Source of the DNA: Thecamonas trahens ATCC 50062
Taxonomy: Eukaryota > Protista > Apusomonadida
Length of the DNA: 19,283 nucleotides
Reading direction: 5' to 3'
Assembly (NCBI RefSeq): GCF_000142905.1
Contig: NW_013657640.1
Location: 145,395 to 164,677 of the forward strand
Part shown: in pieces, positions 1,588 to 19,283 of the stretch
Layout of the letters: the number at the start of each line of letters is the position of its first letter
Numbering within the stretch: the first letter of the stretch is position 1
The notes under the pieces: model-generated
Seen by the model: only the letters and a program-made list of their open reading frames with translations
Told to the model about the DNA's origin: nothing
Database searches by the model: none
Position numbers and translations under genes: made by a program

Positions 1588-1735
1588 TATTTCATAGTTT
1601 CCAACTGCAAACACTCTTCCGCCGTCAGACAGGCCGCGCGGCCCAGCCAGCTGCCATCGATCCGGGGCCAATCGGTCGTGCCGCTCCGCCACGACGGCCA
1701 GCCAGCCAAGCCAACTAGTCAGCCAGCCAGCCACC

Positions 1736-1999
1736 CCCCACCACGGGCGCACCCACTCCCACGGGCACCCCACTCCACCCTTCCCACCCCCCACCCCCCA
1801 CCCCCCACCCCCCCACCCCCACGCCAAAACCGCCCCCTCCACCCCACCCCCCCCACCCAGGTACGCCCTGCCGCCTCCCGCTGCCCGTTGCCGGTGCCTG
1901 CCTGCGCCCCTTCCCCGAAGCCTCCAACGAATTTTTGCCGGTGGCAGACCACCCCTCTCACACCCGTCCACCGCCCCCTCCCCCTCCCCCCCACGCACA
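1736..1999. repeat. Poly-C / (C5-6A)n low-complexity tract upstream of the PP2C-MOB4 gene
   Basis: The tract reads ccccccaccccccaccccccacccccccacccccacg...ccccctcccccctccccccc. On the minus strand the same runs are G-rich. Confidence 0.7.
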
Positions 2000-2001
2000 G
2001 C

Positions 2002-4257
2002 ATGGCGGACCAGACACTGGGCATCTCGTTTGCGGCTGCAGAGCCCCTGGATGACTCGGACTCGGACGAAGGCGTCGTGGCGCATGTGGCTGACGAGGAC
2101 GACTCGTCGTCGGACCCGCTGTCGTCCGACGACGACGCTACCGAGTCGGACGACGGCGACGGCGGTGATGGCCGCGACGGCGACGGGAGCTCAGCAGTGC
2201 TCGGCATCTCGTTCTCGTCGGCCGCTGGTGGCGACGGCGACGGCGACGACGACGGTGGCGACGACGACGACGACGACGGGCTGCCGGACTCGGACGCCGA
2301 CGATTCGGACGAGGAGCTGTCGGACGATTCGTACGACGAGGACGGCCTGGTGCTTGTGCTCAAGTACGGGGCGCACGGGCTGACCGGGCGGCGCAAGACG
2401 ATGGAGGACGCGCACTTTGCAGCGGTGCAGGCGTCGCAAAAACTAGAGACGGCCGAGACGCAGGGCGGCCCTGCGGTGGGCTTTTTCTCAGTCTTTGACG
2501 GCCACGGCGGCGACGCGTGCGCGCTGTATCTCTCACAGAACATGTTCCCCGCAGTGTTGGAGACGATGCCCGAGCTGGCGATCCGGACCAAGGAGGTTGA
2601 CCCGGAGAGCCTCCCGTCGCAGGCCGAGGAGCTGCAGGCGATGGAGACCAGTCTCCGCGAAGCGTACGCGCTCGCCGAGTCGCGGTTCATCTCGCTTGCC
2701 GAGAGCAAAAACGTTGATTCAGGTGCGACAGCCGTCTCTGCCCTCATTCATGGCAACAAGCTCGTGGTTGCCAACGTTGGCGACTCTGAGGCTGTGCTCT
2801 CGCGTGATGGCATGCCTGTCAACCTGACAGTCATCCACAACCCGGCCAAGAACCCGGCCGAGGAGGAGCGAATTGTGGCTGCCGGCGGGCGGGTGTACAA
2901 GAAGCGGGTGGCGCTACCGTCGGTCCCGCCGCACCTGTGCAACATTGCAGTCTCGCGGGCGTTTGGCGATATCCTGTTCAAAAACACGCCTGACGGGACA
3001 GCGTCGGGGCTGACGGCGGATCCGGACGCAGCCACGTGGCTCATTGAGCCGCAGGATGAGTTTCTCATTTTGGCATGCGATGGGGTGTGGGACGTGATGA
3101 CACACGAGGAGGCTGTCGACGAGGTGTCATCGAGCCTTGCGGCGTCGCAGTACGACCCGCAGGCTGCTGTTGAGTGCCTGGTCAAGGCGGCGTACGCGCG
3201 CGGCTCGACCGACAACATCACTGCGCTGGTGGTGCTCTTCGAGTTTGTGCCCGAGGAGGACCTTCTTGAGCTGCTGGAGGACGACCCGAGCCCGCCGCTG
3301 GCGCTGGATGTCAACGGCGAGCCCGCGAGTACCGAGTTTGAAGGCAAGGTGAGCGAGCTGCAGGCGCTCGGTAACGGGTTCTCACCGGTCGCGCCGGTCC
3401 ACCAGACCGGGACTATCAAGCTTATGCCGCGGACGGCGGCGGGCCCGTCGACGCCGACCGCAGGCGGATCGGGCATTACCTTTGCGGCCACGGGAGCAGG
3501 CTCGGACTCTGACGACGGTGTCTCGCCGTTTGGCGTCGACTCGGACGAGTCGGGCTCTGACGACGAGTGGGACGAGAAGGCGCTGTGGCCGGGCAAGCTC
3601 GCGGCTTACACCGAAGAGACACCACTCAACGGTGCGCAGCGCAACGTGCCGGGCACCAAGCGCGACGAACTGTTTGCATGGAAGGCCGCGCCGCTCGAGG
3701 AGCAGACCGGCTCGCTTGAAGTCCAGCAGTACCTGCAGCAGCTGATCCGGAGCGACCCCGCAGACGTGGACAAGATTGTGGAGACGCCCGAGGGCGTGTC
3801 GTCGGTGGTGTGGCAGTACGAGCACCTGCGCCAGCTGACACTCGAGCTCTCGCATCTGGCAGTCATGCTGGAAGAGTGCGGGTGCTCGCCCGAGTCGTGC
3901 CCCAAGATGAAGGCGACTCAAGAGTGGATGTTCCTCTGCGCAGCCCACAAGGAGCCGCAGGAGTGCTCCGCCATCGACTACATGTGCCACACGCTCGAGG
4001 GCGCCGCCGCGCTGCTCAACTCGCAAAAGTACTTCCCCTCGCGCATCAACCTCAAGGAGGCCGACGCCAAGCCGAACCTCCAGTCGGTCGCCCGCCGCCT
4101 CTATCGTATCTGCGCCCACGCCTTCTTTGCCCATAACGACGCCTTTGAGGAGTTTGAAGCCGAGACGCACACTACCGAGCGCGCCGTCAAGCTCGCTGCC
4201 CGCTACAAGCTTGTTGGCCGCAAGATGCGCATCATCCCGCCTGTCGAGGAGTGGTAA
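2002..4257 (+). CDS. PP2C (PPM) phosphatase fused to a MOB4/phocein (Mob1-family) domain
   Basis: A continuous ORF runs from 1678 with no internal stop. The first ATG after the upstream poly-C tract is at 2002 (MADQTLG); the stop is TAA at 4255-4257. The N-terminal region is rich in acidic D, S and G residues. PP2C motifs at about 2347-3246: RRKTMEDAH, FFSVFDGHGG, VANVGDSEAVLS, IAVSRAFGD, LILACDGVWDV, GSTDNITALVV. The C-terminal ~215 aa match MOB4/phocein almost motif for motif: RNVPGTK..F.W, VQQYLQQLIR.D..DVDKIVE.PEG...VWQYEHLRQ..LEL..LAV.LEEC, C..MKATQEWMFLCAAHK.PQECSAIDY..HTLEGAA.LLNS.KYFPSR, RRLYRI.AHA.F.H.D.FEEFE.ET. Confidence 0.8.
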   Translation: MADQTLGISFAAAEPLDDSDSDEGVVAHVADEDDSSSDPLSSDDDATESDDGDGGDGRDGDGSSAVLGISFSSAAGGDGDGDDDGGDDDDDDGLPDSDADDSDEELSDDSYDEDGLVLVLKYGAHGLTGRRKTMEDAHFAAVQASQKLETAETQGGPAVGFFSVFDGHGGDACALYLSQNMFPAVLETMPELAIRTKEVDPESLPSQAEELQAMETSLREAYALAESRFISLAESKNVDSGATAVSALIHGNKLVVANVGDSEAVLSRDGMPVNLTVIHNPAKNPAEEERIVAAGGRVYKKRVALPSVPPHLCNIAVSRAFGDILFKNTPDGTASGLTADPDAATWLIEPQDEFLILACDGVWDVMTHEEAVDEVSSSLAASQYDPQAAVECLVKAAYARGSTDNITALVVLFEFVPEEDLLELLEDDPSPPLALDVNGEPASTEFEGKVSELQALGNGFSPVAPVHQTGTIKLMPRTAAGPSTPTAGGSGITFAATGAGSDSDDGVSPFGVDSDESGSDDEWDEKALWPGKLAAYTEETPLNGAQRNVPGTKRDELFAWKAAPLEEQTGSLEVQQYLQQLIRSDPADVDKIVETPEGVSSVVWQYEHLRQLTLELSHLAVMLEECGCSPESCPKMKATQEWMFLCAAHKEPQECSAIDYMCHTLEGAAALLNSQKYFPSRINLKEADAKPNLQSVARRLYRICAHAFFAHNDAFEEFEAETHTTERAVKLAARYKLVGRKMRIIPPVEEW
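2347..3246 (+). other. PP2C catalytic domain segment of the fusion ORF
   Basis: Extends from DGLVLVLKYGAHGLTGRRKTMEDAH to STDNITALVVLFEF. The conserved Asp-rich metal-binding motifs are intact. Confidence 0.8.
3640..4254 (+). other. MOB4/phocein (Mob1/phocein family) domain segment of the fusion ORF
   Basis: Residue pattern RN.PGTK...F.W...VQQY.QQ.IR.D....DKI.E.PEG....W.YEHLRQ..LEL..LAV.L..EC...C..M.AT..W.FLCAAHK.P.EC.AIDY..HTL.GAA.LLNS.KYFPSR matches phocein across its whole length. Confidence 0.75.
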
Positions 4258-4352: not shown

Positions 4353-5112
4353 TCAAAGAAAGTAATCGGGCACCTGCTTGGCCTGGCCCGACGGCACCTC
4401 ACGGCGGTCCTCGGGCGCAGCGGAGAAGACGTTGAACTCGCGGTTGAGCGAGGCGTCGATCTCGCAGATGGACGCCACGTTGCCGCAGCGGTAGCAGTAG
4501 TTGGGCGCGGACCAGACGGTGGCCAGCAAGCCGTCAAAGTGAATCTGGTAGCCTTCCATGCACAGCTGGTGGGCGCGAAGGACAGTGGAGAGGCCGTTGA
4601 CGTGCAGGAAACGCTCGACGGTGTCTTTGCCGAACAGATGGCCGGCGTTGCGCTGTGAGAGGTTGAATCCGTCACGGTCGGACGGATCCGACCACAGCAG
4701 GTCAGCAAAGACGCCCTCGGACGGCGGCTCGCGGAAGCGGTCGATGAGCTTGATCTGGTCAACCGAGAGCACCGCCGGCGAGAGCCCACCGTGGACACAG
4801 AAGATCTTGCCGGCAATGATGGCCGAGAGCGGGAGGTAGTCAAAGACCTCGCAAAAGTACGACCAAACGTCGGCCGACCCGTACTTTTGCACGACCTCTT
4901 TGTAGAACCCGTACACTTGTGTAATCTGCCGCGACTCGTGGTTGCCGCGCAGCAGCGTGATGCGGTCCGGCCACCGGAGTTTGAGGCACGTCAGCAGCGT
5001 GATCGTCTCCAGGTTAAAGTGCCCGCGGTCCACGTAGTCGCCCAGAAACAGGTATCGCGTATCGGGGCACTCGCCGCCGATCTGGAAGATCTCCAGCAGA
5101 TCGTAGAACTGA
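4353..5112 (-). CDS. Ser/Thr protein phosphatase 4 catalytic subunit (PPP family, PP2A-like), exon 2 of 2
   Basis: Reading the reverse complement gives [83 protein letters not shown], ending in the PP4-like tail [24 protein letters not shown]. Stop is TGA at 4353-4355. The acceptor is ctgcag|T at 5112/5113. I derived the first 26 codons by hand from the reverse complement of 5034-5112, upstream of the listed ORF. Confidence 0.85.
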
Positions 5113-5378
5113 CTGCAGTATCCAGCCGCGATACCGTTACCGTGTTGTTGTGTCGCACCCCGGCTGTCTGTCAGTGGCGAGCCGTCTCTTCTACCCGCCC
5201 CCCCTCCCCCCCTCCCCTCCCCTCTGCGCCCTACCTACCAACCTTCTGCCCACCGCTATCCCACGACAATGCCCACGGCCACCGCCCCCCATCCCCCTCC
5301 CCCCCCCCCTCGCCCCTCCCTCCCTCCCCCTCCCCCCCCCCCCCCCCCCCCCCCACCCCTCCCCCACCCTCAACCTAC
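5113..5378 (-). other. Spliceosomal intron of the PP4c gene (GTAGGT...CTGCAG), 266 nt
   Basis: The consensus donor and acceptor bracket a frame-preserving join. The intron is almost entirely a CT-rich tract on the + strand (GA- and G-rich on the transcript) and includes a C23 homopolymer at 5332-5354. Confidence 0.75.
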
Positions 5379-5539
5379 CCATGGACGTCACCCACAACAG
5401 TCACCGGCGCGTCGACCTCGCACACGTTCGACTCGTCCAGAAGGACGTCAATGACCCGGGTGCAGATGTCCTTGATCGTTGCCTGCGACAGCAGCTCGCA
5501 CCGCTTGAGCTTCTCCAGGCACTTGTCCACGTCGTCCAT
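5379..5539 (-). CDS. Protein phosphatase 4 catalytic subunit, exon 1 of 2
   Basis: ATG at 5539-5537 opens MDDVDKCLEKLKRCELLSQATIKDICTRVIDVLLDESNVCEVDAPVTVVGDVHG, which matches the PP4/PP2A N-terminus. The exon ends with GG|gtaggt, so the donor GT lies at 5378-5377. Splicing joins GG+T to give Gly and continues QFYDLL in frame. The spliced CDS is 921 nt, 306 aa, the normal size for PP4c. Confidence 0.8.
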
Positions 5540-5608
5540 GCCTCCCCCCCGAACGCCTGACAGAGCCAAGTGTTGCTCGCTCCCCTCCTCCCTCATTTCA
5601 ATCCACAG

Positions 5609-5644
5609 GCTCAGCAGTGCTGAGCATGTCTTGCGGCAAGACAT
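5609..5644 (-). promoter_or_regulatory. Two adjacent perfect stem-loops in the 143-nt MVP-stop / PP4c-start spacer
   Basis: gctcagc-agt-gctgagc at 5609-5625 (7-bp stem, 3-nt loop) is followed immediately by atgtcttgc-g-gcaagacat at 5626-5644 (9-bp arms). The second palindrome contains an ATG on the minus strand (5644-5642) that is in frame with the PP4c initiator 35 codons downstream. Confidence 0.5.
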
Positions 5645-5682: not shown

Positions 5683-8310
5683 CTACTGACCCTGCTCCGA
5701 GACGGCAAGCGCAGAGCCGACAAGGCCGTTGGCGGTGTTGAACAGGTTGACCGGCGAGTTGCCGTCGGTGAGGAGGACAGACGAAAGGCCGAGCGAGCCC
5801 AGGAGCTTGGCCTGCATCTCGGGCCCGGCCTTGGCAATGTCCTTGATGACCTCGGGCGTGATGGCCTCGATCATGGCCTTGAACTTGCCGGTCTCGATCT
5901 CGGTCAGCTGGGCCTTCTTGTCGAGCTCGAGCTTGTTGAGTGCGGCGACGTGGGTGAGCTCGGCGGCGTAGTGGGCCTGCAGCCGCTTGAGCTCAAAGGC
6001 AGCCTCGACGTCTGCGGCGTCTGCACGGAGCTGGGCCTGCTCGACACTGGCCTCGCACTCGATGACGGTGGTGGTGGCCTGGGCCTTGGCCTCGGCCTTG
6101 GCCTTGCCCGTCGTCTTGATCGACTCGCACTCGGCCTGCAGCCGGAGAAGCTCGATCTTGGCAGCCTCGGAGAGGCACGAGTCGCGGATGCGGAGCTGCT
6201 CGAGCTCGCCAAGCGCGTCCTGCTCCTCTCGCTTGGCGACGTTGCGCGCCCGCGCTTCGAGCGCGTCGGTGGTGATCTCGATGGCGAGCGAGACCGACTT
6301 TTGCAGCGAGTCCCGCGTCCGCTGGTCCACGGGGTCAACGTTCTGGATGTCGACGTTGGTGATGACAAGGCCGTTGGCCGGAAAGACCCGCTCGTCGCAG
6401 ACCGAGCCATTGTCGTCGAGGCCAAAGACGGCTGCGCGGATGATACGTGCCGAGTTGGCGTGGAACTCCTGGAACGGAATCGAAGCCACCGTGCCGCGGA
6501 TTGACGAGCCGAGCGCCTTGCACGCGTCGCCCACAAAGTCGGCAACCGAGAAGATCTTGCGGGTCGAATCCTCCGTCGACCGGTCGACACGGAACTCCCA
6601 GTTGTACCCGAGCTGAAGCGAGAGGCGTGCATGGTCCGACGTCTCCACCACGATGACGTCGATCATAAAGTCCGGGCCAAGGTAGAGGAGCAGCGACTTG
6701 ATGGCGTTCGACTGCTTCGGCCGCCCGCCCGAGAGCGAGAAGACCGTGAGGTGCTCATTCGGCTGGAGAAGCACCAGCTCTGGGCCAAACACCACCCGGG
6801 CATCCTTGGTCTTGTAGTCAAAGATCTGGACCGCTGCGTTGTGCGGGACACGGTAGGTGACAACCCGCCACTTTTCGCGCCGCTGCATGCCTGTCAGGCC
6901 AGCCGCCCGCGAGCCGGTCGACGCAAGGTTGAGGATCGTCGACTGCAGGCCCGGCGTGCGGCTTGCAGACGAGGAGAACAGCACGTTTGAGCCGGCAGCA
7001 AGCTCGACCGGGGTGTCGGTGAACGGCGTCTCACCGTTGATGAGCGCCTCCATGTCGGCAGGCAGCTCCTTCTCCCACAGCTCCTCGTCGGCCTGCAGCA
7101 TGTACGACGCGCCGATCTCGGCGCGCACCTTGCCGGTCGTCATGTTGCGGACGTACACGCCCTCGTTCTTGTCGAGCGGAATGAGCCACCGCTGCGCCGC
7201 CACACTGCATTGCGGTGCTGGGTAGTAGTCGCGCGGCCCAAAGACCATCCACCGCTCACCCGGCTCCCGCGCCACGCCCTCGTCGTCCACGTACGCCTCG
7301 ACACACCGCAGCACTAGCGCGTCCTGCTTCGACAGCAGGTGCGCCGTCTGCTTGCCGGCAAGCAGCCGCTCGCCGGGCTGCAGGAAGAACGTCTTGGGCC
7401 CTCGGACCATGGTCTTGGTTCCCAGCACGTTCTTGCCGGTCGACGCGTCCACAGGATCCACAATGACGCAGTAGTCGGTGTTTGAGAGCGAGATCGCCGT
7501 CACAGGCGTCACCAGCTGCTCAAAGACCCCGAGCATGTGCGTCGGCGCCTCGGCAAGCGTCACCAGCCACTCGTCGCCGACCTTGCGCTCGATGCCGTAG
7601 ACATCGGTGAAGGCTTGCGTTGCGCGCAGGTGAAGGCCCGTCGTCTCGGTCAGGACATGCAGCTCCTGCACCTCGACAAGCTCCTCCGTTACCCGGCACA
7701 GGTATCGCCCCGGCTGCCGCACAATCCACTCGGAGCCAGCAAGCCGCGCCGTTCCATCCGGCTCGGTAAAGTCCTCCGTCGCCCGCAGCCGCAGCGCCTG
7801 GGTCTCGAGCACCACTACAGAGTGCACCTCCTCCAGCACCGTCACCACCCGCGACGGCAGATACGTCCGCGGGCCCTTGACCAGCCACTGCTCGCCCGCA
7901 GCACGCGTCACCCCACCCTCGTCCTTCACCTCGCGCTCCGCACGCACCCGCAGCGCAGCGCCGTCCTCAATCACGCGCAGCGGCGTCACGCCCAGCACAA
8001 GTGCCTCGCCCGGGTACAGCGGGAACGGGTCCGGAAAGTCGGCCGCAAGCCGCACCTCCTCGTCACCCCACACGCACACGTAAACCCCGTGCTCGTCAAT
8101 CACAGGCTGCCCGGCGTCATCACGCTCCACAGGATTGGCCACCACGCAGTACGACGCCGGCGGCAGGACAATCATCGCCAGCGGGCCATCCACCACGGTC
8201 TCATGTGCCTTCTTGGTGAACGTCGCTGGGCCAACCACCAGCCGCTGCACATTCGTGTTGTTGTCCTCCACCGTCACATACGAATACGGCCGGATGCGAA
8301 TGAGCGACAC
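5683..8310 (-). CDS. MVP: Major vault protein (MVP), apparently intronless
   Basis: The 875-aa ORF is collinear with metazoan MVP from [19 protein letters not shown] through the repeats (GDEWLV, ALRLRA.E.F.D..G..R..G.EWL, FFLQPGE) and the shoulder ([54 protein letters not shown]). It continues through the A/E/K/Q-rich cap helix to [26 protein letters not shown]. Stop is at 5683-5685. The codon at 8310 is GTG, not ATG, and an in-frame TGA lies two codons upstream. The true initiator is therefore probably in a short upstream exon or is non-AUG. Confidence 0.88.
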
Positions 8311-8344: not shown

Positions 8345-8900
8345 GAGTTCATTGCCTTGCTCCCTCCTTCCCTCTCTGTCCCTTTCCCCCGTCCCTTTCC
8401 CCCTTCCCTTTCCCGCCCCCCCCCCCCCCCCCCTTTTGTTTTTCTGCGCCACCAATGGAAAGAAAAATCATCCGAGTGGAACAAGGAAGAAAGCCACCTT
8501 CCCCTCCCCGTCCTTCCCTCCACAGCACAGGCACCTCCCCACCCCCACCCCCCCCCAACGCCCACCCCCCTCTCCCCCTTCCCCTCCCCTTCCCTCCCCT
8601 CCCCCACTCACACCGTACTCTTGTTGCGGGTTGGTGAGACGGATGGTGCTCACCCCCACTCTCACCGCCTCACCCTCCTGCCTGCCCGTCTCCACTTCGG
8701 CCAGCCCCGATCGATCACCCGCCACCACCAGCCAGCCAGCCAGCCAGCCAACCGGAAGACGACCAAACCCCAAACCCACAGGTCTTTCCTTTTCCCTTGA
8801 CACATTGCCTGGCGGGTGGACCACAAAGTCACCACCCCACCCCCCACCCCGCCTTCCCCCCCCTCCCTCCTCCCTCCCCCCCCCCCCTTCCCAAGTGGGC
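8345..8900. repeat. CT- and C-rich divergent spacer between MVP (-) and the arrestin-kinase gene (+)
   Basis: The spacer contains several CCCTYCC(C) runs, a C18 run at 8416-8433, a C12 run at 8876-8887 and a (GCCA)6 microsatellite at 8727-8752. Confidence 0.7.
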
Positions 8901-8905
8901 GCATC

Positions 8906-11826
8906 ATGTCTGTTGCCATCCGCATCGAGCTGGATAAGCCGTCAGGATTTACCTCGGCGGTGAGGCCGTCCATGGTGTGGTGGTGGTGGACTGCTCAGCA
9001 CGTGCCGACGCTACGGCCTTCAAGAGCCTCGAGCTGGCGGTCCACTCGGCGGAGCATGTCGAGTGGCAGCGCCAGGAGATGCAGAAGGTTGCCATCGATC
9101 CGTTTGGCCATGGCCACAACCACAGTCATCATCATTCCCACCGCAGCCACAGCCACGGCCACGGCCACCACTCCCACTCTCGCAGCGACAGTGGCTACGG
9201 CGGCGACCGGTTTGTCATCACCCACTCGGGCGGGCAGACCCAGATGGTGATTGAGGATGGAGCAGCTTCGCATGGCTCGTCACACTACGGATCGACCGTC
9301 TGCGAGCCGGGCTACGAGATGCGCCAGGTGACCGTGACTGTCAGCGACTCGGCGCCGGTCGTCACCCTCCGCATCGCACTCGATGCCAAGGGCGGCTCAT
9401 TCGACTCACATGGCGTCTATCACTTTCCGTTTGCCTTTGCCCTTCCAGTCGATACCCAGGGCTCGCTGGAGGTGCCACAGGGCGGGACTGGGACGCCCAT
9501 CACCGGCTCGGTCCGCTACTGGCTCAAGGCCATGCTCACCCGCAAGGGTCTCAAGTTTAACGTAGGCTCGCCACAGCGCGACTTTGTTGTCGCACCGCTC
9601 TTCACCTCGGTTGTTGCCCGGCCCAAGGCGTTGCCTCGCAGCCGGTTGCCGGCGGTGGCGCCTACACTGCCACCCTCTCGCTTGATCGCAATGCTGCTGT
9701 CCCGGGCGAGACCGTTATGGCTCATCTCCACGTCGCCAACAACTCGCCCATGCCCATCTCCTCGGTCACCTTTCAGATTGTCCAGACCATCTCGGGAACA
9801 CGCCGCTCGCCGCCCGAGTCGGGCCAAAAGTCGCTGGTCATTTTCACCTCGTCGCGTCCAGGTGCACAGCCGTACACTCCCCTCACCATCGAGATCGGCA
9901 TCCCGCTGCCGCCGGCATTGTGGGCGACCGTCACCGGCCCGCTCCTCCGCAACGAATACGCCGTTGTCGCTGTCATCCATCCGGCGTCTGGGCCTGACGT
10001 CCATGCCGGTGTCGGCCTCTCGGTTCTCGCTCCGAACGCGCTTGACGGCGGCGCGCTTAAGGCTACCCCTTTGGCACTCCGCTCCGCCTCATCGCCGCCA
10101 AGGCACCGCCGTCAGTTGTCCTCGCTCCGCCACCGGGCGTCGACCCGCTGCCGCTCGACGGCACCGTCCTGCCAGAACGCAAAGTCGGCCTCAAGTCGTG
10201 GCACATGTACTTTATCGACGTTCCCGCCCTCACTCACGAGGCCCGCCTCGAAATCGTTCTTCGTGGAACGTCCAAGGCCACGCTGGCCCTTCGCCTTCGC
10301 AAAGCCTCGCAACCCTCTCATTTGACCTCGTACGACTTTGCCGGCACCAAGGCCGGCAAGCACGTCTACTCGATCGCCATCAACAAGAACAACGGCGTGC
10401 CGCTCCAGCAGGGCCGCTGGTTTGTTGGCGTCTGGGGTACAAACGTCTTCCCACCCTCCTCCAAATATGTTCTCTCCGCCACACTCACTGGTGCCGCTCC
10501 GCCGCCGCCGCCTGCTGCGCTTCCGGAGCGAAGGTCATCGCTAGAGTTGGAGTCTGGCGGCGCATCGTCGTCGGCTGCGCCGTCCACCTCACCGGTCGTT
10601 GCCGACGAAACGCCGCCCCTCCCGCCGTTATCCGGGAATCCGAGAAGTCTGCTACCGCCTCAGCTTCAGCACCGCCGCCGCCGTCGTTTCACGATCCCAA
10701 CTATGCCTCACTCGCGTCGGTGGCTTTGGCGGGATCTGCGTACGCTGCGCCGCCTCCAGAGCCCGGAGCAGGCTCGGCAAGTAGTGTCGAGTCGTCGGCG
10801 GCCGATGGTGCCGGAGTTGCCGACGGCGCCGACGACAACAGCTCGTACAGCATTGCGGCCAGCGAGCTGCAGCGCGGCGAGTTGGTCGGATCAGGCGCGT
10901 TTGGAGTGGTCCATCGCGGTACCTGGCGCGGCGGCGACGTGGCCATCAAGACCATCAAGGTCGATTCGTTGGCTTCCGACGCCGTGGCAGAGTTCAAGGC
11001 CGAGGCCAAGCTCATGCGCCTCCTCCCACCACACCCCAATGTTGTCCAGTTTCTCGGGGTGTGCAAGGCCGGCGAGAACGAGCTCTGCATCGTCTCTTCG
11101 TTTGTGCCTGGCGGCACCCTCCTCGCTCTCCTCCATCCAACCTCGGGCTTTGTGTGGAACGTCGAGAAGAAGCTTGGCGTGGCAGTCGGCATTGCCGCCG
11201 GCCTCCTGCATCTCTCAGCCGAGTCGATTGTCCACCGCGATCTTGCCGCCCGCAACATCCTTGTCTCGGTCGGCGGCCATGGCCCGGCAGCCACAGTCAC
11301 GCCACTCCTCACCGACTTTGGCATGAGCCGCGACGCGTCAGGCGCCGGCGACAACTACACCGCGTCCGTTGTCGGCCCGGTCAAGTGGATGGCGGTCGAG
11401 GCCATCACACATCGCAAGTACTCGGCCAAGTCGGACGTCTGGTCGTTCGGCGTGCTTCTCTTTGAGATCTTCACCCAAACTGAGCCGTACGCCGGCCTCA
11501 CTCCGCTGCAGGTTGCAGCCGGTGTCTCCAGTGGCTCACTCACCCTCGACCTCGATGGCCACGCAGCTGACATCCCTCCGCCCGTCGTTGATCTCATTCA
11601 AGCCTGTATGGCCCACGAGCCCGAAGACCGACCCTCAGTTCGTGACCTGTTCCGCACCGTCTCGCACCTCCGCACTCAACTCAGCCCAACGCCCAGGCCT
11701 ATCAGCTATGCCACTGTCAACCCGTTTGCCCCATCGTCGTCGGCGTCGTCGTCCCCGGCCGCAACCCCGACACAGACCGCAACCTCAGGCCCGGCCTTTG
11801 CCTACTCGGAGAATCTGGGTGGATAA
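8906..11826 (+). CDS. Arrestin-fold (N+C) / beta-sandwich / TKL protein kinase multidomain gene, reading frame broken in four places (possible pseudogene or assembly indels)
   Basis: ATG at 8906 opens MSVAIRIELDKP (arrestin-N-like start) in frame 2. From 8938 frame 1 continues arrestin-N: VRIYLGGEAVHGVVVVDCS...GVYHFPFAFALPVDTQGSLEV...GSVRYWLKAMLTRKGLKFNVGSPQRDFVVAPLF. An arrestin-C domain sits in frame 3 at about 9640-10060: GGGAYTATLSLDRNAAVPGETVMAHLHVANNSPMPISSVTFQIVQTI...LLRNEYAVVAVIHP. A beta-sandwich (PPC/P-domain-like) domain sits in frame 2 at 10061 to about 10560: LPLDGTVLPERKVGLKSWHMYFIDVPALTHEARLEIVLRG...GKHVYSIAI...GRWFVGVWGT...YVLSATL. The kinase is back in frame 1 at about 10864-11685: GSGAFGVV, VAIKTIK, HRDLAARN, DFG, PVKWMAVE. 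Stop is TAA at 11824-11826. The listed 949-aa ORF at 8977..11826 stays open only because frame 1 has no stop; its middle 350 codons are an R/S/P-rich off-frame translation. Confidence 0.6.
10864..11685 (+). other. Protein kinase catalytic domain (tyrosine-kinase-like, TKL) of the arrestin-kinase gene
   Basis: Gly loop LVGSGAFGVVHRG, VAIK lysine, HRDLAARN catalytic loop, DFG and PVKWMAVE (APE-like) are all present. The domain appears catalytically competent. Confidence 0.85.
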
Positions 11827-12046: not shown

Positions 12047-13249
12047 TTAGCCGGTAAACGCGAGAGCAATGTTGACGCCAGAGAGGACGCCAGCGTTGAG
12101 GAGGAAGCTCATCTGGATGCCACCGTTCTCCTTCTCGTACGGCTCGAGCTCGTCGGGCCCATACATCATCGCCAGCGTGCCACAGTAGCCGTTGGAGAGG
12201 GCAAAGAAGGCCATGAAAAGAAACGGGTAGCCGGCCCAGCTGGTAAAGTACGGCTCGGTAAAGGTGCCGGCAGCGAGGAGGAAGAGCGGGACAAAGGCGA
12301 GGCGGCAGAGGATGGGGATGAGCAGGGTCCGTGGCGAGAAGAGGCGGATGAAGCGCGGCGAAGTGCGGCCGATATAGTCAAAGAGCATAAACTCGGAAGT
12401 GAGGAGGACCTGGTACCAACCCGAACTGAGAAAGTTGGGGTCCTTGGGCTTGATCTGCGAGGTGACGCCCGGGAACATGGAGAGGGTGACGACAAAGACA
12501 ATGTAAACGCCGAGTCCCTCCTTCCAGAGCTTGGAGAAGACTTCGACGACGGACGGGTCTGTGCGGCAGACGATGACACCGTCCGAGTAGACGTCTAGCT
12601 GCGGGCGAGGGCTCAGTGCCTGAGAGTCGGCGGTAGTGACGTCTGTGGCATCCAGCGCAGGCGGCTGCGACTGGGCCACGATGTGGTACTTGACAAACGG
12701 GTGGCGGAGCATGGCAAAGTACAGGGTGATGCAGACAGCCAGGACAAGACCGGCGAGTGAAAAATAGATAAACGTCGACTCGCGCAGGCCCTTCTCGGTG
12801 TTGGGCAGCGAGGCCTTGGTGACGATACGGAGGGCAGCGGCGACGATTCCGGAGAGGCCGATGCCCGACATGGCGGCGGTGATGTACGACGAGGGGAAGA
12901 GCGAGGCAAATCCCAAGACGGTGCCAAAGACCACTCCGGTGCAGACACCCGTGATAAAGACAGCGAAGAGAGTGAGCCAGAGCTCGACGTCGTAGGAGAG
13001 GCCGAGCAGCGAGAGGCAGGGTGTGACGACGAGCATGACTAGCGAGATGGAGTACGTGGCGGCGATACGAGTCGAGACCGACCATGAGGCGGCGTAACGG
13101 ACCGAGACAAACAGCATGATGAGCGAGGGATAGTTGAAGGCGCACGAGATGCGGAACTCGATGTTGTTGCCGAATCGCTCCGAGAAGTAGTCAAAGGCCG
13201 AGATGAACGAGTTCCAGGCCATCAGCACGCCCGTACCCAGAATGACCAT
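12047..13249 (-). CDS. Equilibrative nucleoside transporter (ENT/SLC29 family)
   Basis: The 404-aa ORF contains ENT hallmarks: GTGVLMAWNSFISAFDYF (the TM1 PWN region), SGIGLSG, the MFPGV...TSEFMLFDYIGR segment, LAFVPLFLL, and FALSNGY near the C-terminus. It has multiple hydrophobic TM segments and a central hydrophilic loop. Stop is TAA at 12049-12047. The codon at 13261 is GTG with an in-frame TAG three codons upstream. The first ATG is at 13249-13247 (MVILGTG..), so the 5' end is uncertain. Confidence 0.85.
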   Translation of the reverse strand: MVILGTGVLMAWNSFISAFDYFSERFGNNIEFRISCAFNYPSLIMLFVSVRYAASWSVSTRIAATYSISLVMLVVTPCLSLLGLSYDVELWLTLFAVFITGVCTGVVFGTVLGFASLFPSSYITAAMSGIGLSGIVAAALRIVTKASLPNTEKGLRESTFIYFSLAGLVLAVCITLYFAMLRHPFVKYHIVAQSQPPALDATDVTTADSQALSPRPQLDVYSDGVIVCRTDPSVVEVFSKLWKEGLGVYIVFVVTLSMFPGVTSQIKPKDPNFLSSGWYQVLLTSEFMLFDYIGRTSPRFIRLFSPRTLLIPILCRLAFVPLFLLAAGTFTEPYFTSWAGYPFLFMAFFALSNGYCGTLAMMYGPDELEPYEKENGGIQMSFLLNAGVLSGVNIALAFTG

Positions 13250-13261
13250 CGCCAGCCACAC

Positions 13262-13480: not shown

Positions 13481-14059
13481 CCTTGTCACGTGGCGCCTTG
13501 CGCAAAAGGGGCTGGCCAGCCTTTCCGTCCTCCTCGCCATGGAGGCGCTCATACGACTTGCCCATGTGGCCGTGGCAACGGAGAGGTGGGGCAAAGGGAG
13601 GTACGGCTGGTGATGGCACCGCTTTCGCCAGAGCCATTGCCGATGGACGACCAGCCGGTGAAAGGCGGCCAGTGGCAGGGGAGGGGGAGGGGAAGGGGGG
13701 GGGGGAGGAAGGCAGTTGCTGTGTGATGGATGATGAATGGTATGATCGACGGGGAGAGTGGCATCATACAGATGCTGTCGATGTCGATGATCGTCTCTGG
13801 GGACTCATCGCACCATGCACACCCCCGGGATGGAATAATCATCGGTGGGGGTGCTGGACATGTGATGATCGTTCCATGTGCAGGCTCTGGGACGTGTGTT
13901 GATCGACCACCGGGGGAGGGTGATGGCTGTGGTTGAGCCGCGTGTGGCGGGAAGGCCGTGCACTCTCGTCGCCGGCGGGGCGGGCCTTGGCCGGGTGCCA
14001 TTGGGCCAGCCACCTGACTCGGACTCGGCGGTAGCAGGGCGGGCCTGGGCGGGGCGGGC

Positions 14060-15397
14060 ATGGACGAGCTTGATTCGAGTGCCACCGACAATGACGAGGT
14101 GAGGCTGCTGGCCGGGGACTGGGGACTGCTAGACGGTGACTCGAGTAGTGGCGGTGTGCATGGCGAGGCCGACGTGGCGAGGAAGCCGCCGCCGCCTCTG
14201 GACTCGCCGCCGCCTGCTGCCCAACCATCGCCTGATGCCCGGCCGCCACCACCTCCGGACTCACCGCCGCCTGATGCCCAATCATCGCCTGATGCCCGGC
14301 CGCCACCACCTCCGGACTCGCCGCCACCTGCTGTCCAACCATCGCCGCCTCCGGACTCACCGCCGCCTAATGCCCGGCCGCCACCTCCTCCGGACTCGCC
14401 GCCGCCTGATGCCCAATCATCGCCTGATGCCCGGCCGCCACCTCCTCCGGACTCGCCGCCACCTGCTGTCCAACCATCGCCGCCTCCGAACTCACCGCCG
14501 CCTAATGCCCGGCCGCCACCTCCTCCGGACTCGCCGCCGCCTGATGCCCAATCATCGCCTGATGCCCGGCCGCCACCTCCTCCGGACTCACCGCCGCCTG
14601 CTGTCCAACCATCGCCGCCTCCGGACTCACCGCCGCCTGATGCCCGGCCGCCACCTCCTCCGGACTCGCCGCCGCCTGTTGCCCAATCATCGTCGCCTCC
14701 GGACTCGCCGCCGCCTGATGCCCAATCATCGCCTGATGCCCGGCCGCCACCTCCTCCGGACTCGCCGCCACCTGCTGTCCAACCATCGCCGCCTCCGAAC
14801 TCGCCGCCGTCTGATGCCCGGCCGCCACCTCCTCCGGACTCGCCGCCACCTGCTGTCCAACCATCGCCGCCTCCGGACTCACCGCCGCCTAATGCCCGGC
14901 CGCCACCTCCTCCGGACTCGCCGCCGCCTGATGCCCAATCATCGCCTGATGCCCGGCCGCCACCTCCTCCGGACTCGCCGCCACCTGCTGTCCAACCATC
15001 GCCGCCTCCGAACTCGCCGCCGTCTGATGCCCGGCCGCCACCACCTTCGGACTCGCCGCCGCCTGCTGCCCAACCATCGCCTGATGCCCGGTCGCCACCT
15101 CCTCCGGACTCACCGCCGCCTGCTGTCCAACCATCGCCGCCTCCGGACTCACCGCCGCCTGATGCCCGGCCGCCACCTCCTCCGGACTCGCCGCCGCCTG
15201 TTGCCCAATCATCGTCGCCTCCGGACTCGCCGCCGCCTGATGCCCAATCATCGCCTGATGCCCGGCCGCCACCTCCTCCGGACTCGCCGCCACCTGCTGT
15301 CCAACCATCGCCGCCTCCGAACTCGCCGCCGTCTGATGCCCGGCCGCCACCACCTCCGGACTCGCCGCCGCCTGCTGAACTCACCGCCGCCTGATGC
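14060..15397 (+). CDS. Proline-rich tandem-repeat protein, N-terminal part (frame 2) ending at a TGA created by a 20-nt deletion in one repeat unit
   Basis: ATG at 14060 opens MDELDSSATDNDEVRLLAGDWGLLDGDSSSGGVHGEADVARK. Repeat units follow: DAQSSP / DARPPPPPDSPPP / AVQPSPPPDSPPP / NARPPPPPDSPPP. Frame 2 ends ..SPPPAELTAA* at 15395-15397. There, gctg|aactcaccgcc lacks the canonical tccaaccatcgccgcctccg. Confidence 0.55.
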
Positions 15398-15672
15398 CCG
15401 GCCGCCACCTCCTCCGGACTCGCCGCCACCTGCTGTCCAACCATCGCCGCCTCCGAACTCACCGCCGCCTGTTGAACAAGCATCGCCGCCTCCGAACTCG
15501 CCGCCGCCTGATGCCCGGCCGCCACCACCTCCGGACTCGCCGCCGCCTGTTGCCCAACCATCGCCTGATGCCCGGCCGATACCACCTCCGGACTCACCGC
15601 CGCCTGTTGCCCAATCATCGCCTGATGCCCGGCTGCCAATGCCCGGCTGCCACCTCCTCCGGACTCGCCGCC
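14184..15672 (+). repeat. Coding tandem repeat with higher-order structure: 39/18-nt subunits forming 135-nt units, with nested duplications up to about 520 nt
   Basis: The gatgcccaatcatcgcct landmark recurs at 14273, 14408 and 14543 (135-nt spacing). It then recurs at 14718, 14930 and 15239. The gttgcccaatcatcgtcgcct variant recurs at about 14680 and 15200, a spacing near 520 nt. On the + strand the units translate as PPPPDSPPP-type repeats; the minus strand gives GGGESGGG. Confidence 0.85.
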
Positions 15673-17449
15673 GCCTGCTGCCGCTGCCCGCCTGTACAAA
15701 ATTGTGGCTGAAGAGGTCACCCAAGAACTCGCTGACGCCACCATTGACGCTGTCACTACCGAATTGTCCCACAACATCACCCGCGATGTGCTGCTCGTCG
15801 CTGACGCCTCTTCAGTCGTCGAAGATCTTGTCACCGACGCTGCCGCCGCTGTGGCTGCCGCCGTCCATTCTTCGGCCGTCAACGAGGCCAACGCGGCCGC
15901 TGAGATTGTGGACAATGTGATTACAGATGGAGTCGCTGTATTGCTCTCCATGCTTGCTGCAGAAGCTGTATCTGAACACGCTGCCGCTCTGGACGCCGCT
16001 CTGGACACCGTTATTGCTGACCTTGCTGCAGACGTCATCGATCATGATAGTTCACTCGTCGCCGCCGCTGCCCTTGACCACGCTCGCGATGTCGACGCCG
16101 CCAGCCATGGACTCGCTGATGAGATCTTTGATGCTGCGGTGACGACTGCACTTCTTGCCAGCGCTGAGCACGCGCTGGACGTTGATCTTGCCGGGCGCGA
16201 GGTTGTTGACGAGCTCGTCGATGGCGTCTGTGCCATTGTCGCTGACGCCGCCCTGCACCACGAGCGCCTTATCGAGGCCGCATTCGCCGAGCTCGTGGAG
16301 CAGCTTACTGATGATCTCGGCCTTGAGGCGGGAATGGAGGCCTGGGATGAGCTAGTCTTTGAAGACGCCGTTGACTGCTGTGTATCGGAGCTCACGGATG
16401 ACTTTTCGGCCTTCCTCGCCTTTGACACCTACATCATGCAGGAGGCCATTGAGGCCGGGACCCAGGAGTGCTATGCCGAGTATGTGGGCGAGGTCACTGC
16501 CTTCTGTGCAGCTGACATTCTGCTTTACGAGCGCGCTCTTCATGCCGCGCTGGTTGAAGAGCTGCAGCTGTGGACCGACGATCTTGCGCTCGAGGTGGCG
16601 TCGGACGTTGTCACCGACGCACTCATTGTGGCCATGCCGCTGATGGAGCCACAGCTTCCGCGGACCACGCACTATACCCCAGCTATCCAGGCTCAGCTGG
16701 CGGCATTTGCCGAGTGGACCGGCGCCGTCCGCGCCCTTCTCCCCAAGATCGATGCTGGTCTCGACGCCGAGCTCGCGGTTGCTGCCGCCTGGCCACCACC
16801 GCCAGAGCTACACCTCGCGCACGATGGCATTGCCCTCGTTGGTCCTGCGCCCGACGAGCCTGGCGACCTCGCGCTGGTTGTGCTCACCGAGCCCGAGCCC
16901 GCCACGCTCGCCGCCGCCGCGCCTCTTGCGCTCGCCTGCATCCCGCGACTTGCCCGCTCAGGCGTTGTCCCTCCACGCTGCTCCATCGTTGCGCACGTTT
17001 CTATCTCTGCTGCATCTGCTGCGCTTCACTACGCGCTGCAGCCGTCGGTCCGCGCCGCCTGCGCCGCCCTCTCCGACGCACTCGAGCACGAGCCGTACGA
17101 TGTTGCTCGCGCTGCCGACGCCCTCGAACTGCCACAGCTCTACGTTTTGGCTATGGCCTTTACGTACAACACCCTTGACTCACTGGCGTCGATGCTCGAC
17201 GAGCTCGGTACCTCGTTTATGATGCGCCTCTCGCCGCGAGCATGGCGCAAAGTCGACCGCGCGCTTGCGGGCAAGCCTCGGGACACGCCTTCGCTGCCGG
17301 CGCAAAAGACAGTCATGGACCTGCTCTGGTTCCTTCGCACGACTGCGTTGGTGCCAATCCGCCTCAACTACCAGTCTGCAGCCTCGCGCTGGCGCATCGA
17401 GTACGCACGCGCGGCCGTGGCAGCGCCTGGTGCATCGGCTCCGCTGTAA
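15626..17449 (+). CDS. C-terminal part of the same gene: final repeat units plus an acidic A/D/E/L-rich helical domain of unknown family (frame 2)
   Basis: Frame 2 reopens at 15626: ..NARLPPPPDSPPPAAAARLYKIVAEEVTQELADATIDAV... It runs 600 codons to TAA at 17447-17449. The domain has a complex protein-like composition (FLAFDTYIMQEAIEAGTQECYAEYVGEVTAFCAADILLYERALHAALVEELQLW...). Between 15398 and 15625 the repeat is readable only in frame 3. I recognise no conserved domain. Confidence 0.55.
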   Translation, partial: CPAANARLPPPPDSPPPAAAARLYKIVAEEVTQELADATIDAVTTELSHNITRDVLLVADASSVVEDLVTDAAAAVAAAVHSSAVNEANAAAEIVDNVITDGVAVLLSMLAAEAVSEHAAALDAALDTVIADLAADVIDHDSSLVAAAALDHARDVDAASHGLADEIFDAAVTTALLASAEHALDVDLAGREVVDELVDGVCAIVADAALHHERLIEAAFAELVEQLTDDLGLEAGMEAWDELVFEDAVDCCVSELTDDFSAFLAFDTYIMQEAIEAGTQECYAEYVGEVTAFCAADILLYERALHAALVEELQLWTDDLALEVASDVVTDALIVAMPLMEPQLPRTTHYTPAIQAQLAAFAEWTGAVRALLPKIDAGLDAELAVAAAWPPPPELHLAHDGIALVGPAPDEPGDLALVVLTEPEPATLAAAAPLALACIPRLARSGVVPPRCSIVAHVSISAASAALHYALQPSVRAACAALSDALEHEPYDVARAADALELPQLYVLAMAFTYNTLDSLASMLDELGTSFMMRLSPRAWRKVDRALAGKPRDTPSLPAQKTVMDLLWFLRTTALVPIRLNYQSAASRWRIEYARAAVAAPGASAPL

Positions 17450-17459
17450 CACCTCGGCG

Positions 17460-19073
17460 TCAGAGCTCGTCGCCGGGCGCAAAGGAGTTGTGTCCGTCCG
17501 ACGAGCACGACGAGCACGAGCCGGCTCCCCGCCGCCCACCAGGCTCCAGCACCGCCAGTGCGTCGGGCGTAAACAGATCGTCGCCGAGCATGTGGTGGTA
17601 CCGGCTGGAGCCGCGCCTGTGGTACCAGTACCCGCCACCAGCAACGCACCCAATCACGCCGCACACCAGCAGCAGGATGATAGCCACCGTGCCGGCATCT
17701 GTCGGCCCGGCCGCAGGCGCCGGGCTCGGCGACGAGGCTGTCTCCCGCCCGCATGCCGCGTCCCAATCGTCGTAGAATGAATCACGAGTAGCGTCGAGGA
17801 ACGCGTCCAGCGGTACGATGCACGCGTCGCTCCGGGTGTCCAGCGCCACGCTCGCGGCGCTGACGCAGATGCCGCCGGAAAAGACCAGCGGGGCGTCATT
17901 GTAAAACGCCGAGACGTACGCCGCCCCAGTATCGGTTATGTGCAGCTCAAAGACGACTGACGAGGCGTACGGCGGAATGCCACCGGCTTCGGTGACTGGA
18001 AGCGCTGCCAGGAGCGACGCCAGCGTTGTGTCGTGGGCAGAGAGCAGGTAGAACTTGCGGAGGTCGGCGGGCAGCTCGCCAGGGCCGATCGACGGCGATG
18101 GCGAGGCTGTAAAGCCCTCGGAAGCAGCGGCCGGCGGTGGCGGCGGCGGCGCCACGTAGGCCTGGAACAAGTCGCGGAGAGTGGCCACCATGTTGCCACC
18201 AGCCAGCTTGCCGGCCTTGTCGTGCGAAAAGGTATGAGCCGTGACCCAGTCGGCCGTGGCAATGATGTCGTCGAGCATCGGGAGCGTGACCTTGCCGTTG
18301 AGCAGCGGCTTGCCGTGCGACCACGCACAGAAGAGTGGGTCGTAGATCAGGTACCACTTGCCGAGCGTCACCTCTTCGCCGGCGAGCTCAGCCAGCGTCT
18401 CGGCCAGCGTTGCCACGTCCGCAGCCTTGGCCACAAACTCTGGCGAGCTCTGGCGCGCCTTCTCCAGTGCGTCAAACTCGGGACAGTTGTTGTACCCGCG
18501 GAGCAGCGTGTCGTAGACCACCGGTCGCGAGTGGATCGGCACGTACTGCACCCGCTCCGGCGAGTCGGCCGGGCCGGTCCCGGCCGGGAAGAGCCCGGCT
18601 AGCAGCGCCTGCGCCGACTGGATGGTCCGATCGACAGCGGTGGCACGGGCGTAGACGTCAAAGACCGAGTACGTCTCCATGGCTAGCAGCGCCGAGTAGT
18701 TGGCCCTTAGCCGCTGGCCCAGCGCCACGTGCTGCGCCATGCCGCGCCCGGTCAGCTGACCGCGGCCCTGCGGCCACTCATTGTCATCCTCGGGCAGCGC
18801 ATGGACCGGCGTCCGGTCGCCATGCCGGGTGAAGACCACCACCGCCTGCAGCGTACCAGGCCGAGCCCCTGCCGCCCGCTTGCCCACCCGTCCGCCCCAA
18901 TGCGGTCCTCCAGCCTCGTCGGCCAGTCCGCCGTCCCACCAGCCGCCGACCTCCTCGTCGGCTCCCACCGCAGTCACCACCAACGCCACCACCACCACCG
19001 CCAGCACCAACACCACCACCACCCCAGCCACCCCATGTCCTGGACCATCCGTCCGTCTGCGGGCACTTGCCAT
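17460..19073 (-). CDS. Histidine acid phosphatase (lysosomal/prostatic acid phosphatase-like), type I membrane topology
   Basis: ATG at 19073-19071 (MASARRRTDGPGHG) is followed by a hydrophobic VAGVVVVLVLAVVVVALVVTAV. The RHGxRxP signature is present (VVVFTRHGDRTP), as is the proton-donor motif LLSAHDTTLASLL. A C-terminal TM segment (TVAIILLLVCGVIGCVAGGGYWY) is followed by a short tail ending ..SFAPGDEL. Stop is TGA at 17462-17460. The listed ORF runs on to 19265, but that upstream part is a repeat-derived read-through. Confidence 0.85.
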   Translation of the reverse strand: MASARRRTDGPGHGVAGVVVVLVLAVVVVALVVTAVGADEEVGGWWDGGLADEAGGPHWGGRVGKRAAGARPGTLQAVVVFTRHGDRTPVHALPEDDNEWPQGRGQLTGRGMAQHVALGQRLRANYSALLAMETYSVFDVYARATAVDRTIQSAQALLAGLFPAGTGPADSPERVQYVPIHSRPVVYDTLLRGYNNCPEFDALEKARQSSPEFVAKAADVATLAETLAELAGEEVTLGKWYLIYDPLFCAWSHGKPLLNGKVTLPMLDDIIATADWVTAHTFSHDKAGKLAGGNMVATLRDLFQAYVAPPPPPPAAASEGFTASPSPSIGPGELPADLRKFYLLSAHDTTLASLLAALPVTEAGGIPPYASSVVFELHITDTGAAYVSAFYNDAPLVFSGGICVSAASVALDTRSDACIVPLDAFLDATRDSFYDDWDAACGRETASSPSPAPAAGPTDAGTVAIILLLVCGVIGCVAGGGYWYHRRGSSRYHHMLGDDLFTPDALAVLEPGGRRGAGSCSSCSSDGHNSFAPGDEL

Positions 19074-19115
19074 TCCAGACCAGTAGCGAGAGGAGTCGTG
19101 AAGAAGAGTCCACCA

Positions 19116-19181
19116 GGCAGGAAGGTAGCCAGGGAGGAAGGTAGCCAGGCAGGTGGGTAGCCTGGCAGGTGGGTAGCCACA
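19116..19181. repeat. Four degenerate tandem copies of a 16-nt motif, 45-110 nt upstream of the acid phosphatase ATG
   Basis: The copies are caggaaggtagccagg / gaggaaggtagccagg / caggtgggtagcctgg / caggtgggtagccac. Confidence 0.6.
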
Positions 19182-19283
19182 CCAGGCCACCCCGGTCATC
19201 CTACGCCCATCCACCCCATCCACCCACCCCCCCCACCCCATCCACCTACATTCCATTCCATCCACCCACCCCCACGAGATGCC

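Follow-up and report, generated by a model that had tools for sequence, protein, structure and literature searches.

An arrestin-kinase gene of Thecamonas trahens with four -1 frame discontinuities in its deposited sequence, three of them probably masked by patch introns in the public gene model

Introduction

How can the recognisable domains of what looks like one gene follow each other in different reading frames, and what would such a gene encode? This question is raised by a stretch of DNA of 19,283 nucleotides (nt) from Thecamonas trahens ATCC 50062 (contig NW_013657640.1, positions 145,395 to 164,677 of the forward strand), hereafter the window, which is dense in genes and has a GC content of about 65%. 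Within the window, to which all positions below refer, the gene at 8906-11826 contains arrestin, beta-sandwich and kinase parts that are read in the frame order 2, 1, 3, 2 and 1. A preliminary description of the locus, made from the letters alone, assigned each domain to its own frame, linked the domains by four apparent -1 shifts and considered either a young pseudogene or a locally poor sequence. The public gene model KNC52393.1 / XP_013755437.1 (P0001; 807 amino acids, NCBI name "TKL protein kinase") instead joins the frames by three short introns. Here we compare these readings and conclude that the three introns are almost certainly annotation patches around frame deficits, and that the four shifts most likely reflect either a faulty deposited sequence or a pseudogene of recent origin, with no new biology behind them.

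Results

Domains and frames

The layout of one frame per domain was borne out by Pfam, by the GC content of third codon positions (GC3), by codon log-odds and by tblastn. In the Pfam search, Arrestin_N (PF00339) was found in frame 1 (nt ~9409-9567, 30.3 bits, cut-off 24.9), Arrestin_C (PF02752) only in frame 3 (nt 9660-9986, E 1.1e-10, 42.4 bits, cut-off 27.7) and PK_Tyr_Ser-Thr (PF07714) in frame 1 (nt 10870-11655, 197.6 bits, E 3e-58, cut-off 23.1), so both arrestin domains are present above thresholds in alternate frames, as had been predicted. Repair of the first frame switch raised the Arrestin_N score to 43.4 bits, with positions 2-64 of the hidden Markov model newly covered, while Arrestin_C scored 40.8 bits in the fully repaired protein. 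The GC3 periodicity passes from frame 1 to frames 3, 2 and 1 again, with changes at about 9640, 10070 and 10550. When codon log-odds were computed with the neighbouring genes of the window as training set, 8906-8940 scored +1.03 bits per codon in frame 2 and -0.81 in frame 1, and the model then followed frame 1 to ~9612, frame 3 over 9642-10022, frame 2 over 10103-10594 and frame 1 from 10645, each segment scoring +0.41 to +0.67 bits per codon in its own frame and negatively in the other two. An open reading frame (ORF) of 581 amino acids at 15704-17449 was taken out of the training set because the homolog search gave no match for it, and the result stayed the same after its removal.

Furthermore, frameshift-tolerant alignment by tblastn of the spliced, single-frame protein of the closest relative (P0002) against the window yielded three high-scoring segment pairs (HSPs), in frame 1 (8959-9615), frame 3 (9600-10100; identity 35%) and frame 2 (10067-10642). 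They overlap at their ends, jointly span all three annotated introns and show 31-35% identity. The gene is thus laid out in the frame order given above, and homology runs across its junctions.

A naive ORF finder is blind to these breaks because one stop-free ORF in frame 1 covers 8938-11823 (962 codons; 8977-11826 in the ORF list), a feature overlooked in the preliminary description. Residues ~230-600 of its translation are rich in Arg, Ser and Pro and have the look of an out-of-frame reading. Frame 1 stays open through ~330 off-frame codons (Poisson P 0.007, codon-shuffle P 0.002). However, a control gene (17460-18900) showed 0 off-frame stops where 8.9 were expected, and we gave the openness of frame 1 no weight because the null is evidently miscalibrated in this genome; avoidance of off-frame stops may be one of its general properties. 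A search for antisense ORFs and Rfam matches found nothing.

The four discontinuities

All four switches are of the -1 type, with one base missing at each, which agrees with the uniform direction described earlier (Table 1). At site 1 the codons CCG (Pro, 8939-8941) and GTC (Val, 8941-8943) have base 8941 in common, and the site cannot be an intron because the adjoining codons overlap and leave nothing to splice out. It is bounded by a frame-1 stop at 8935-8937 and by a codon change-point at 8938-8946, and contains neither a homopolymer of at least 3 nor a slippery heptamer. A metagenome scan for this site with a 5- or 6-nt spacer gave 0 matches, and exact look-ups of P0001, P0004, the PAP ORF and the 949-residue frame-1 ORF, made to find independent T. 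trahens sequence, gave no record either. Site 2 has its codon change-point at 9619-9630, an overlap of the frame-1 and frame-3 HSPs at 9600-9615 and CCC runs at 9617 and 9622. Site 3 is bounded on its left by a frame-2 stop at 10058-10060, with the change-point at 10061-10064 and the HSP overlap at 10067-10100; here ...SALAPAGTPLAGL of the relative aligns to GALKAT in frame 3 and GTPLRLI in frame 2. These three sites lie where they had been expected, while the fourth, formerly placed at 10560-10625, lies slightly to the right of that interval. Site 4 is the least certain and its position is a best guess: the homology in frame 2 reaches 10642 (PPLSGNP against VPLSGEP of the relative), frame 1 is plausible as protein only from 10645 (KSATASASAPPPPSFHDPNY), and frame 2 past 10645 reads as Arg-rich junk. 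The codon change-point at 10528-10530, located in a low-complexity linker, was overridden by homology and amino-acid plausibility. All four sites have a C/G-rich context and each can be mended by one base added to an existing C or G run, the placements not being unique; runs of at least 3 fall within the preferred intervals of sites 2 and 3 only.

Four shifts, all -1, in an otherwise functional-looking gene might also be real deficits that are corrected in expression, by -1 ribosomal frameshifting, transcriptional slippage or insertional RNA editing, so that one nuclear mRNA, recoded at four sites, would yield the full-length protein. The sole in-frame X_XXY_YYZ heptamer of the four sites, C_CCU_UUG at 10067-10073 in site 3, would suit such a mechanism, as a slip there yields exactly the homologous sequence. 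Yet a slippery heptamer is absent from sites 1, 2 and 4, no stable structure follows any of them (the 100 nt downstream of sites 1-4 are no more stable than shuffles, z -0.46, -1.31, +1.11 and -0.02), and the relative reads through the corresponding positions without any recoding. To our knowledge, no such nuclear recoding system is known in apusomonads. Because the heptamer occurs only at site 3, the folds are lacking and the relative does without recoding, programmed frameshifting or editing is very unlikely, and we regard it as the least credible of the explanations weighed here.

The annotated introns

The public model consists of the exons 9244-9612, 9642-10022, 10103-10594 and 10645-11823. 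It starts at an internal Met (9244) and therefore skips the first frame change; the remaining three are bypassed by GT..AG introns (29, 80 and 50 nt), each 3n+2 in length. In a homolog search with the conceptually repaired protein, the public protein was the single match, with 92% identity over 79% of the query, and an exhaustive search gave 100% identity over the matched stretches. If this annotation were right, sites 2-4 would be genuine spliceosomal introns and the Met at 9244 the true start. The GT..AG boundaries, the 3n+2 lengths and the open 807-amino-acid product fit this reading, and transcript data may have guided the annotation: a preprint that includes T. trahens among its genomes kept only transcript-supported annotations (10.1101/283549). 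The preliminary description had denied room or GT..AG support for introns, which is literally false, as the 29-, 80- and 50-nt GT..AG pairs exist, but they are uninformative. When 1-nt deletions were simulated in the genes of the window, 596 of 600 (99%) could be bridged by a patch intron (stop-free, GT..AG, 20-120 nt, length 3n+2), with a median of 17 solutions. The boundaries carry no weight, because nearly every random deletion offers the same.

Its conclusion that the switches are not introns did hold, on the strength of homolog residues, coding scores and the codon overlap at site 1. In a multiple alignment, all 4 close homologs, one of them the paralog AMSG_01112 (KNC52285.1) from T. trahens itself, carry residues in the columns of introns 1 and 2, where the annotated model has gaps of 12 and 36 columns, respectively. 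The relative P0002 matches the residues encoded by intron 2 (VLAPNALDGGALKAT / GTPLRLIAAKAPPSVVLAPPPGV versus VIAPQPSPGSALAPA / GTPLAGLPAPAAPYMILAPPVGV), a segment that includes site 3 and corresponds to the last part of arrestin-C plus the linker between the domains. In addition, the best frame-switching coding path through the three segments scored 41.5 together; the path score was 22 for intron 2 and 12.8-15.9 for intron 3. Coding sequence with a simulated 1-nt deletion scored 38.4±13.0, real introns -0.4±8.5, intergenic sequence 3.5±7.8 and shuffles 4.7±7.6, and 0 of 2000 in each of the three non-coding nulls reached 41.5. We therefore judge the segments to be coding, the case for intron 3 being weaker than that for introns 1 and 2, as its sequence is of low complexity.

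Structure prediction and splice signals point the same way. Residues 241-248 (nt 9621-9644, mostly within intron 1) form a beta-strand predicted with high confidence (predicted local distance difference test, pLDDT, ~95), which splicing would remove; intron 2 codes mostly for a disordered interdomain linker. The annotated introns open with GTTGCC, GTTCTC and GTCGTT. The sole homology-anchored T. trahens intron in the window (5378-5113, minus strand) has 266 nt and reads GTAGGT...CTGCAG; it lies between GDVHG and QFYDL of a PP2A/PP4/PP6-family gene. The P0002 relative has two real introns of 90 and 93 nt, both opening with GTACGT, at positions other than the annotated ones. In splice-site strength and length the annotated introns are unlike these real ones, a comparison with three reference introns only. 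Moreover, the relative is colinear in one frame, and a start at 9244 would sacrifice half of the arrestin N-domain, although a homologous N-terminus is encoded upstream in frame 2. We thus consider it very improbable that the annotation is right, and the three introns are, judging from sequence comparison, almost certainly patches drawn around frame deficits. Direct repeats flanking the introns, considered as a sign of origin by tandem duplication, were rejected, with only short two-copy matches of chance quality.

Spurious models that arise from a draft genome and an automatic gene finder are documented (PMC3426473). The present model resembles spurious models caused by indel errors in draft assemblies in its short, weak-signal 3n+2 introns exactly at the frame changes and in its truncated N-terminus, and differs in that the indels may be either errors or real mutations. 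Usable literature on intron statistics, sequencing technology or frameshifts of T. trahens was not found.

The repaired protein

With the four deficits mended, the gene encodes a predicted protein of ~974 amino acids comprising an alpha-arrestin, a PPC-like sandwich, a disordered low-complexity linker and a kinase (Table 1). The N-terminus read in frame 2 has counterparts in the paralog AMSG_01112 (MSVTITLDNAPP), in two other homologs (MSVSVVLENAPP and MRMSVSIALVG) and in the closest relative (MSLSVRF). The AlphaFold2 (AF2) model places a strand at residues 4-9, with a mean pLDDT of 88 for residues 1-10. This model, calculated for the repaired N-terminal 531 residues (mean pLDDT 80.3), is a two-lobed beta-sandwich with the arrestin fold. 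The best Foldseek match was C. elegans ARRD-6 (7usy_J, E 1.4e-15), followed by beta-arrestins (E ~1e-11 to 1e-10), TXNIP and VPS26. A His-rich low-complexity insert (HGHNHSHHHSHRSHSHGHGHHSHS..., ~9105-9290) interrupts the arrestin N-lobe and is lacking in the homologs; it is predicted to be disordered (residues 70-129, pLDDT <50), and the rest of the model is confident.

Residues 414-530 are modelled as all-beta with pLDDT mostly >85. No Pfam family reached E<=0.1 for the frame-2 segment, and PPC (PF04151) was found nowhere in the repaired N-terminal part. By phmmer the sandwich matched the bacterial proteins P0003 (1.5e-18), P0008 (5.7e-08) and P0017 (9.8e-05) at regions where Pfam does detect PPC, a transitive link only; the label PPC-like appears reasonable for this domain. 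In the kinase domain, the motifs GSGAFG, VAIK, HRDLAARN, DFG, PVKWMAVE and DVWSFG were read directly and are intact, the APE motif taking the form AVE. HRDLAARN and PVKWMA.E are motifs of the tyrosine-kinase type. Among the matches listed, the best relatives are generic tyrosine kinases and tyrosine kinase-like (TK/TKL) kinases with 43-45% identity. T. trahens is reported to possess homologues of protein tyrosine kinases (PMC4053784).

Table 1. Parts of the arrestin-kinase gene, its frame discontinuities, the annotated introns and neighbouring genes of the window.
Feature	Position	Strand	Frame	Basis or remark
Start codon and first 12 codons	8906-8941	+	2	MSVAIRIELDKP; beta-strand 1 of arrestin N-domain
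Arrestin N-domain	8941-9620	+	1	Pfam Arrestin_N, tblastn HSP
First C-domain strand, Arrestin_C and start of linker	9621-10072	+	3	Pfam, HSP, Foldseek
Linker, PPC-like beta-sandwich (~10139-10492) and Ser/Ala/Pro-rich linker	10073-10642	+	2	phmmer, HSP, AF2
Linker, kinase domain (10870-11655), C-terminal tail and TAA (11824-11826)	10645-11826	+	1	Pfam, motifs
Site 1	8939-8943	+	2 to 1	read directly at GATAAGCC^GTCAGG
Site 2	9616-9630	+	1 to 3	inside GCCCGGCCCAAGG
Site 3	10061-10075	+	3 to 2	in ACCCCTTTGG
Site 4	about 10640-10650 (allowed range 10528-10650)	+	2 to 1	least certain, best guess
Annotated intron 1	9613-9641	+		29 nt, GTTGCC...CGCAG; judged coding, VARPAQGVASQ
Annotated intron 2	10023-10102	+		80 nt, GTTCTC...CCAAG; judged coding
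Annotated intron 3	10595-10644	+		50 nt, GTCGTT...CCGAG; judged coding, frame-2 linker VVADETPPLPPLSGNP
Purple acid phosphatase (PAP)	70-1587	+
PP2C and Mob1 ORF	1678-4257	+
PP2A-family phosphatase	4353-5644	-		with intron
Major vault protein (MVP)	5683-8310	-
ENT nucleoside transporter	12047-13261	-
Histidine phosphatase (His_Phos_2)	17460-19265	-

Relatives and architecture

The repaired part outside the kinase had 31 relatives in an exhaustive HMMER search. The paralog AMSG_01112 and the proteins P0005, P0006 and P0014 share the MSV... N-terminus, the arrestin N and C domains and the sandwich in the same order, and the sandwich motif ...RWYIGVWG...PP.S.Y... is common to the target, AMSG_01112 and relatives. 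They part company at the C-terminus: the tail of AMSG_01112 is Pro-rich and bears PPxY-type motifs, P0014 closes with a SAM domain, and the kinase occurs in the target gene only. P0002 also has a PPxY-type tail, unlike the target. The Logan contigs L001 and L002 (SRR30952584/5) of the P0002 relative are identical over their overlap and encode arrestin-N, arrestin-C and sandwich in one frame, colinear with the target from arrestin-N through the sandwich to the linker motif PLSG.P. A kinase is not demonstrable in this relative because its contigs stop in an ANSA repeat, and the kinase matches in Logan came from unrelated, AT-richer organisms. No synteny was found between the contig of the relative and the neighbouring genes of the window. 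Both contigs (L001 1-3755, L002 1-2295) have a GC content of ~64% and end in an (ANSA)n-coding repeat, and an ORF of 503 amino acids that lies upstream in L001 (139-1650) gave no Pfam match and resembles nothing in the window.

The protein has in common with the alpha-arrestins/ARRDC proteins (ARRD-6, human TXNIP and ARRDCs, yeast ARTs) the Arrestin_N and Arrestin_C domains above thresholds and the predicted two-lobed fold. It differs from them in the extra PPC-like sandwich, the C-terminal kinase, the His-rich insert in the N-lobe and the lack of PPxY: a search of the repaired 974-residue protein for PPxY/LPxY gave none, only DPNY and EPGY. Such motifs recruit HECT (Nedd4-type) ubiquitin ligases and are typical, not universal, in alpha-arrestins. 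With the TK/TKL kinases of amorphean protists it shares the PK_Tyr_Ser-Thr match, HRDLAARN and PVKWMA.E; it differs in having an arrestin as N-terminal partner instead of an SH2 domain or receptor ectodomain, and AVE for APE. An arrestin Pfam domain was carried by 0 of the 110 best kinase relatives listed, and no kinase was present in the arrestin-type matches examined. The architecture arrestin-sandwich-kinase, found nowhere else among the matches examined, thus appears as uncommon as had been supposed, probably an unusual variant of the alpha-arrestin family.

Neighbouring genes

The preliminary description stated that seven other genes of the window show no break. This did not stand: besides the real 266-nt intron, a Pro-rich repeat gene shifts frame twice and the MVP gene starts with GTG. 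The repeat gene (14018-15720, plus strand, PPPPPDSPPPAVQPSP...) stays in frame 2 until a TGA at ~15390, continues as the same repeat in frame 3 to ~15625, and returns to frame 2, leading into the 581-amino-acid acidic/Ala-rich ORF that ends at 17449. Its first switch falls at ~15377, where 20 nt are deleted in comparison with sister repeats, and its second at an exact 14-nt tandem duplication (ATGCCCGGCTGCCA twice, 15625-15652), a net change of -6 nt. Collapse of the repeat in assembly, real indels or an intron could be responsible. In the MVP ORF on the minus strand, GTG-TCG-CTC-ATT at 8310 encodes the conserved N-terminus with no in-frame ATG before it and a TGA two codons upstream; ATG in place of GTG would give a textbook MVP start. 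This could stem from a wrongly substituted base, from initiation at a non-AUG codon or from an intron in the 5' part. The argument drawn from clustering against a sequence error is consequently weaker than stated.

Several further features were observed. The ORF at 1678-4257 combines PP2C (residues 229-514) with Mob1/phocein (696-849) behind an acidic low-complexity region, and represents an uncommon fusion or else a pair of genes that have been run into one. Poly-G tracts of >20 G occur inside the 266-nt intron and also in the intergenic sequence 8415-8435. The acidic/Ala/Val-rich ORF at 15704-17449 (plus strand) has no Pfam domain, no homolog in the protein search and no T. trahens entry, and its antisense frames are even less protein-like.

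Discussion

What caused the deficits? Once introns and recoding are set aside, the two explanations named at the outset, a poor local sequence and a young pseudogene, are still the live ones. In the first, there would be one T. trahens gene, intact and functional in the organism, whose deposited coding region is short of one nucleotide at four places because bases were miscalled or misassembled where the GC-rich draft genome is locally of poor quality. The gene predictor would then have drawn three patch introns around three of the deficits and avoided the fourth by a late start codon. We rate this at about even odds and slightly favour sequence error over a recent pseudogene or null allele. 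The gene looks alive, with no stop in any segment in its proper frame, intact catalytic motifs and a repaired N-terminal part that is predicted to fold as an arrestin, and it retains every residue that is invariant or nearly so across the family. Relaxed constraint would show as stops in the proper frame or as a loss of codon bias or conserved residues, none of which was found, the change of APE to AVE being the sole oddity. The four events are alike, one base missing each, and other anomalies lie within a few kb, namely the -20/+14 nt breaks of the repeat gene and the GTG start of MVP.

Several points weigh against sequence error in an intact gene. Four deficits fall within 1.7 kb, whereas ~11 kb of flanking single-copy coding sequence (PAP, PP2C-Mob1, MVP, ENT and His_Phos_2) are clean, which fits a gene-specific event better. 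Because sites 1 and 4 contain no homopolymers of at least 3, a simple model of homopolymer undercalling is insufficient. AVE for APE could be the first sign of decay, the kinase-less paralog AMSG_01112 could cover the arrestin function and so make the gene dispensable, and a function of the arrestin-kinase is something that we infer from its parts. Moreover, no kinase-bearing ortholog was found, and the fusion may therefore be young and dispensable. These observations would suit real single-base deletions in the organism, or in one allele, and thus a very recent pseudogene or null allele, for which the open frame 1 would allow as any product a partial arrestin-N, ~330 residues of Arg/Ser/Pro-rich junk and the kinase. 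We regard this as a serious possibility, if a somewhat less probable one. The lesions, however, are identical in type, the 2.9 kb contain neither insertions nor larger indels nor in-frame stops, and the codon bias and every conserved residue are kept. At the typical ratio of substitutions to indels, four neutral indels should be accompanied by tens of substitutions and probably a stop.

On the comparisons made here, KNC52393.1 / XP_013755437.1 is probably wrong as a protein model. It is without the first 113 residues, which include half of the arrestin N-lobe, and without 53 internal residues that include a predicted core strand. Domain surveys that use KNC52393.1 would under-call the architecture, because these parts are absent from it. 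Tiny introns may, as this case suggests, conceal frameshifts in further gene models of T. trahens.

As for the function, the arrestin module would dock on membrane cargo or receptors and would bring its own kinase along, a hypothesis drawn from the parts of the protein, while the kinase-less paralog would enlist ubiquitin ligases through its PPxY-type tails. Real frameshifts would make the locus a young pseudogene and no more. An intact gene would unite an alpha-arrestin and a tyrosine-kinase-like domain, adaptor and kinase, in one chain in a close outgroup of animals and fungi, in contrast to the separate arrestins and kinases of animals. Such a fusion would add modestly, but genuinely, to the evidence on how receptor-adaptor signalling evolved.

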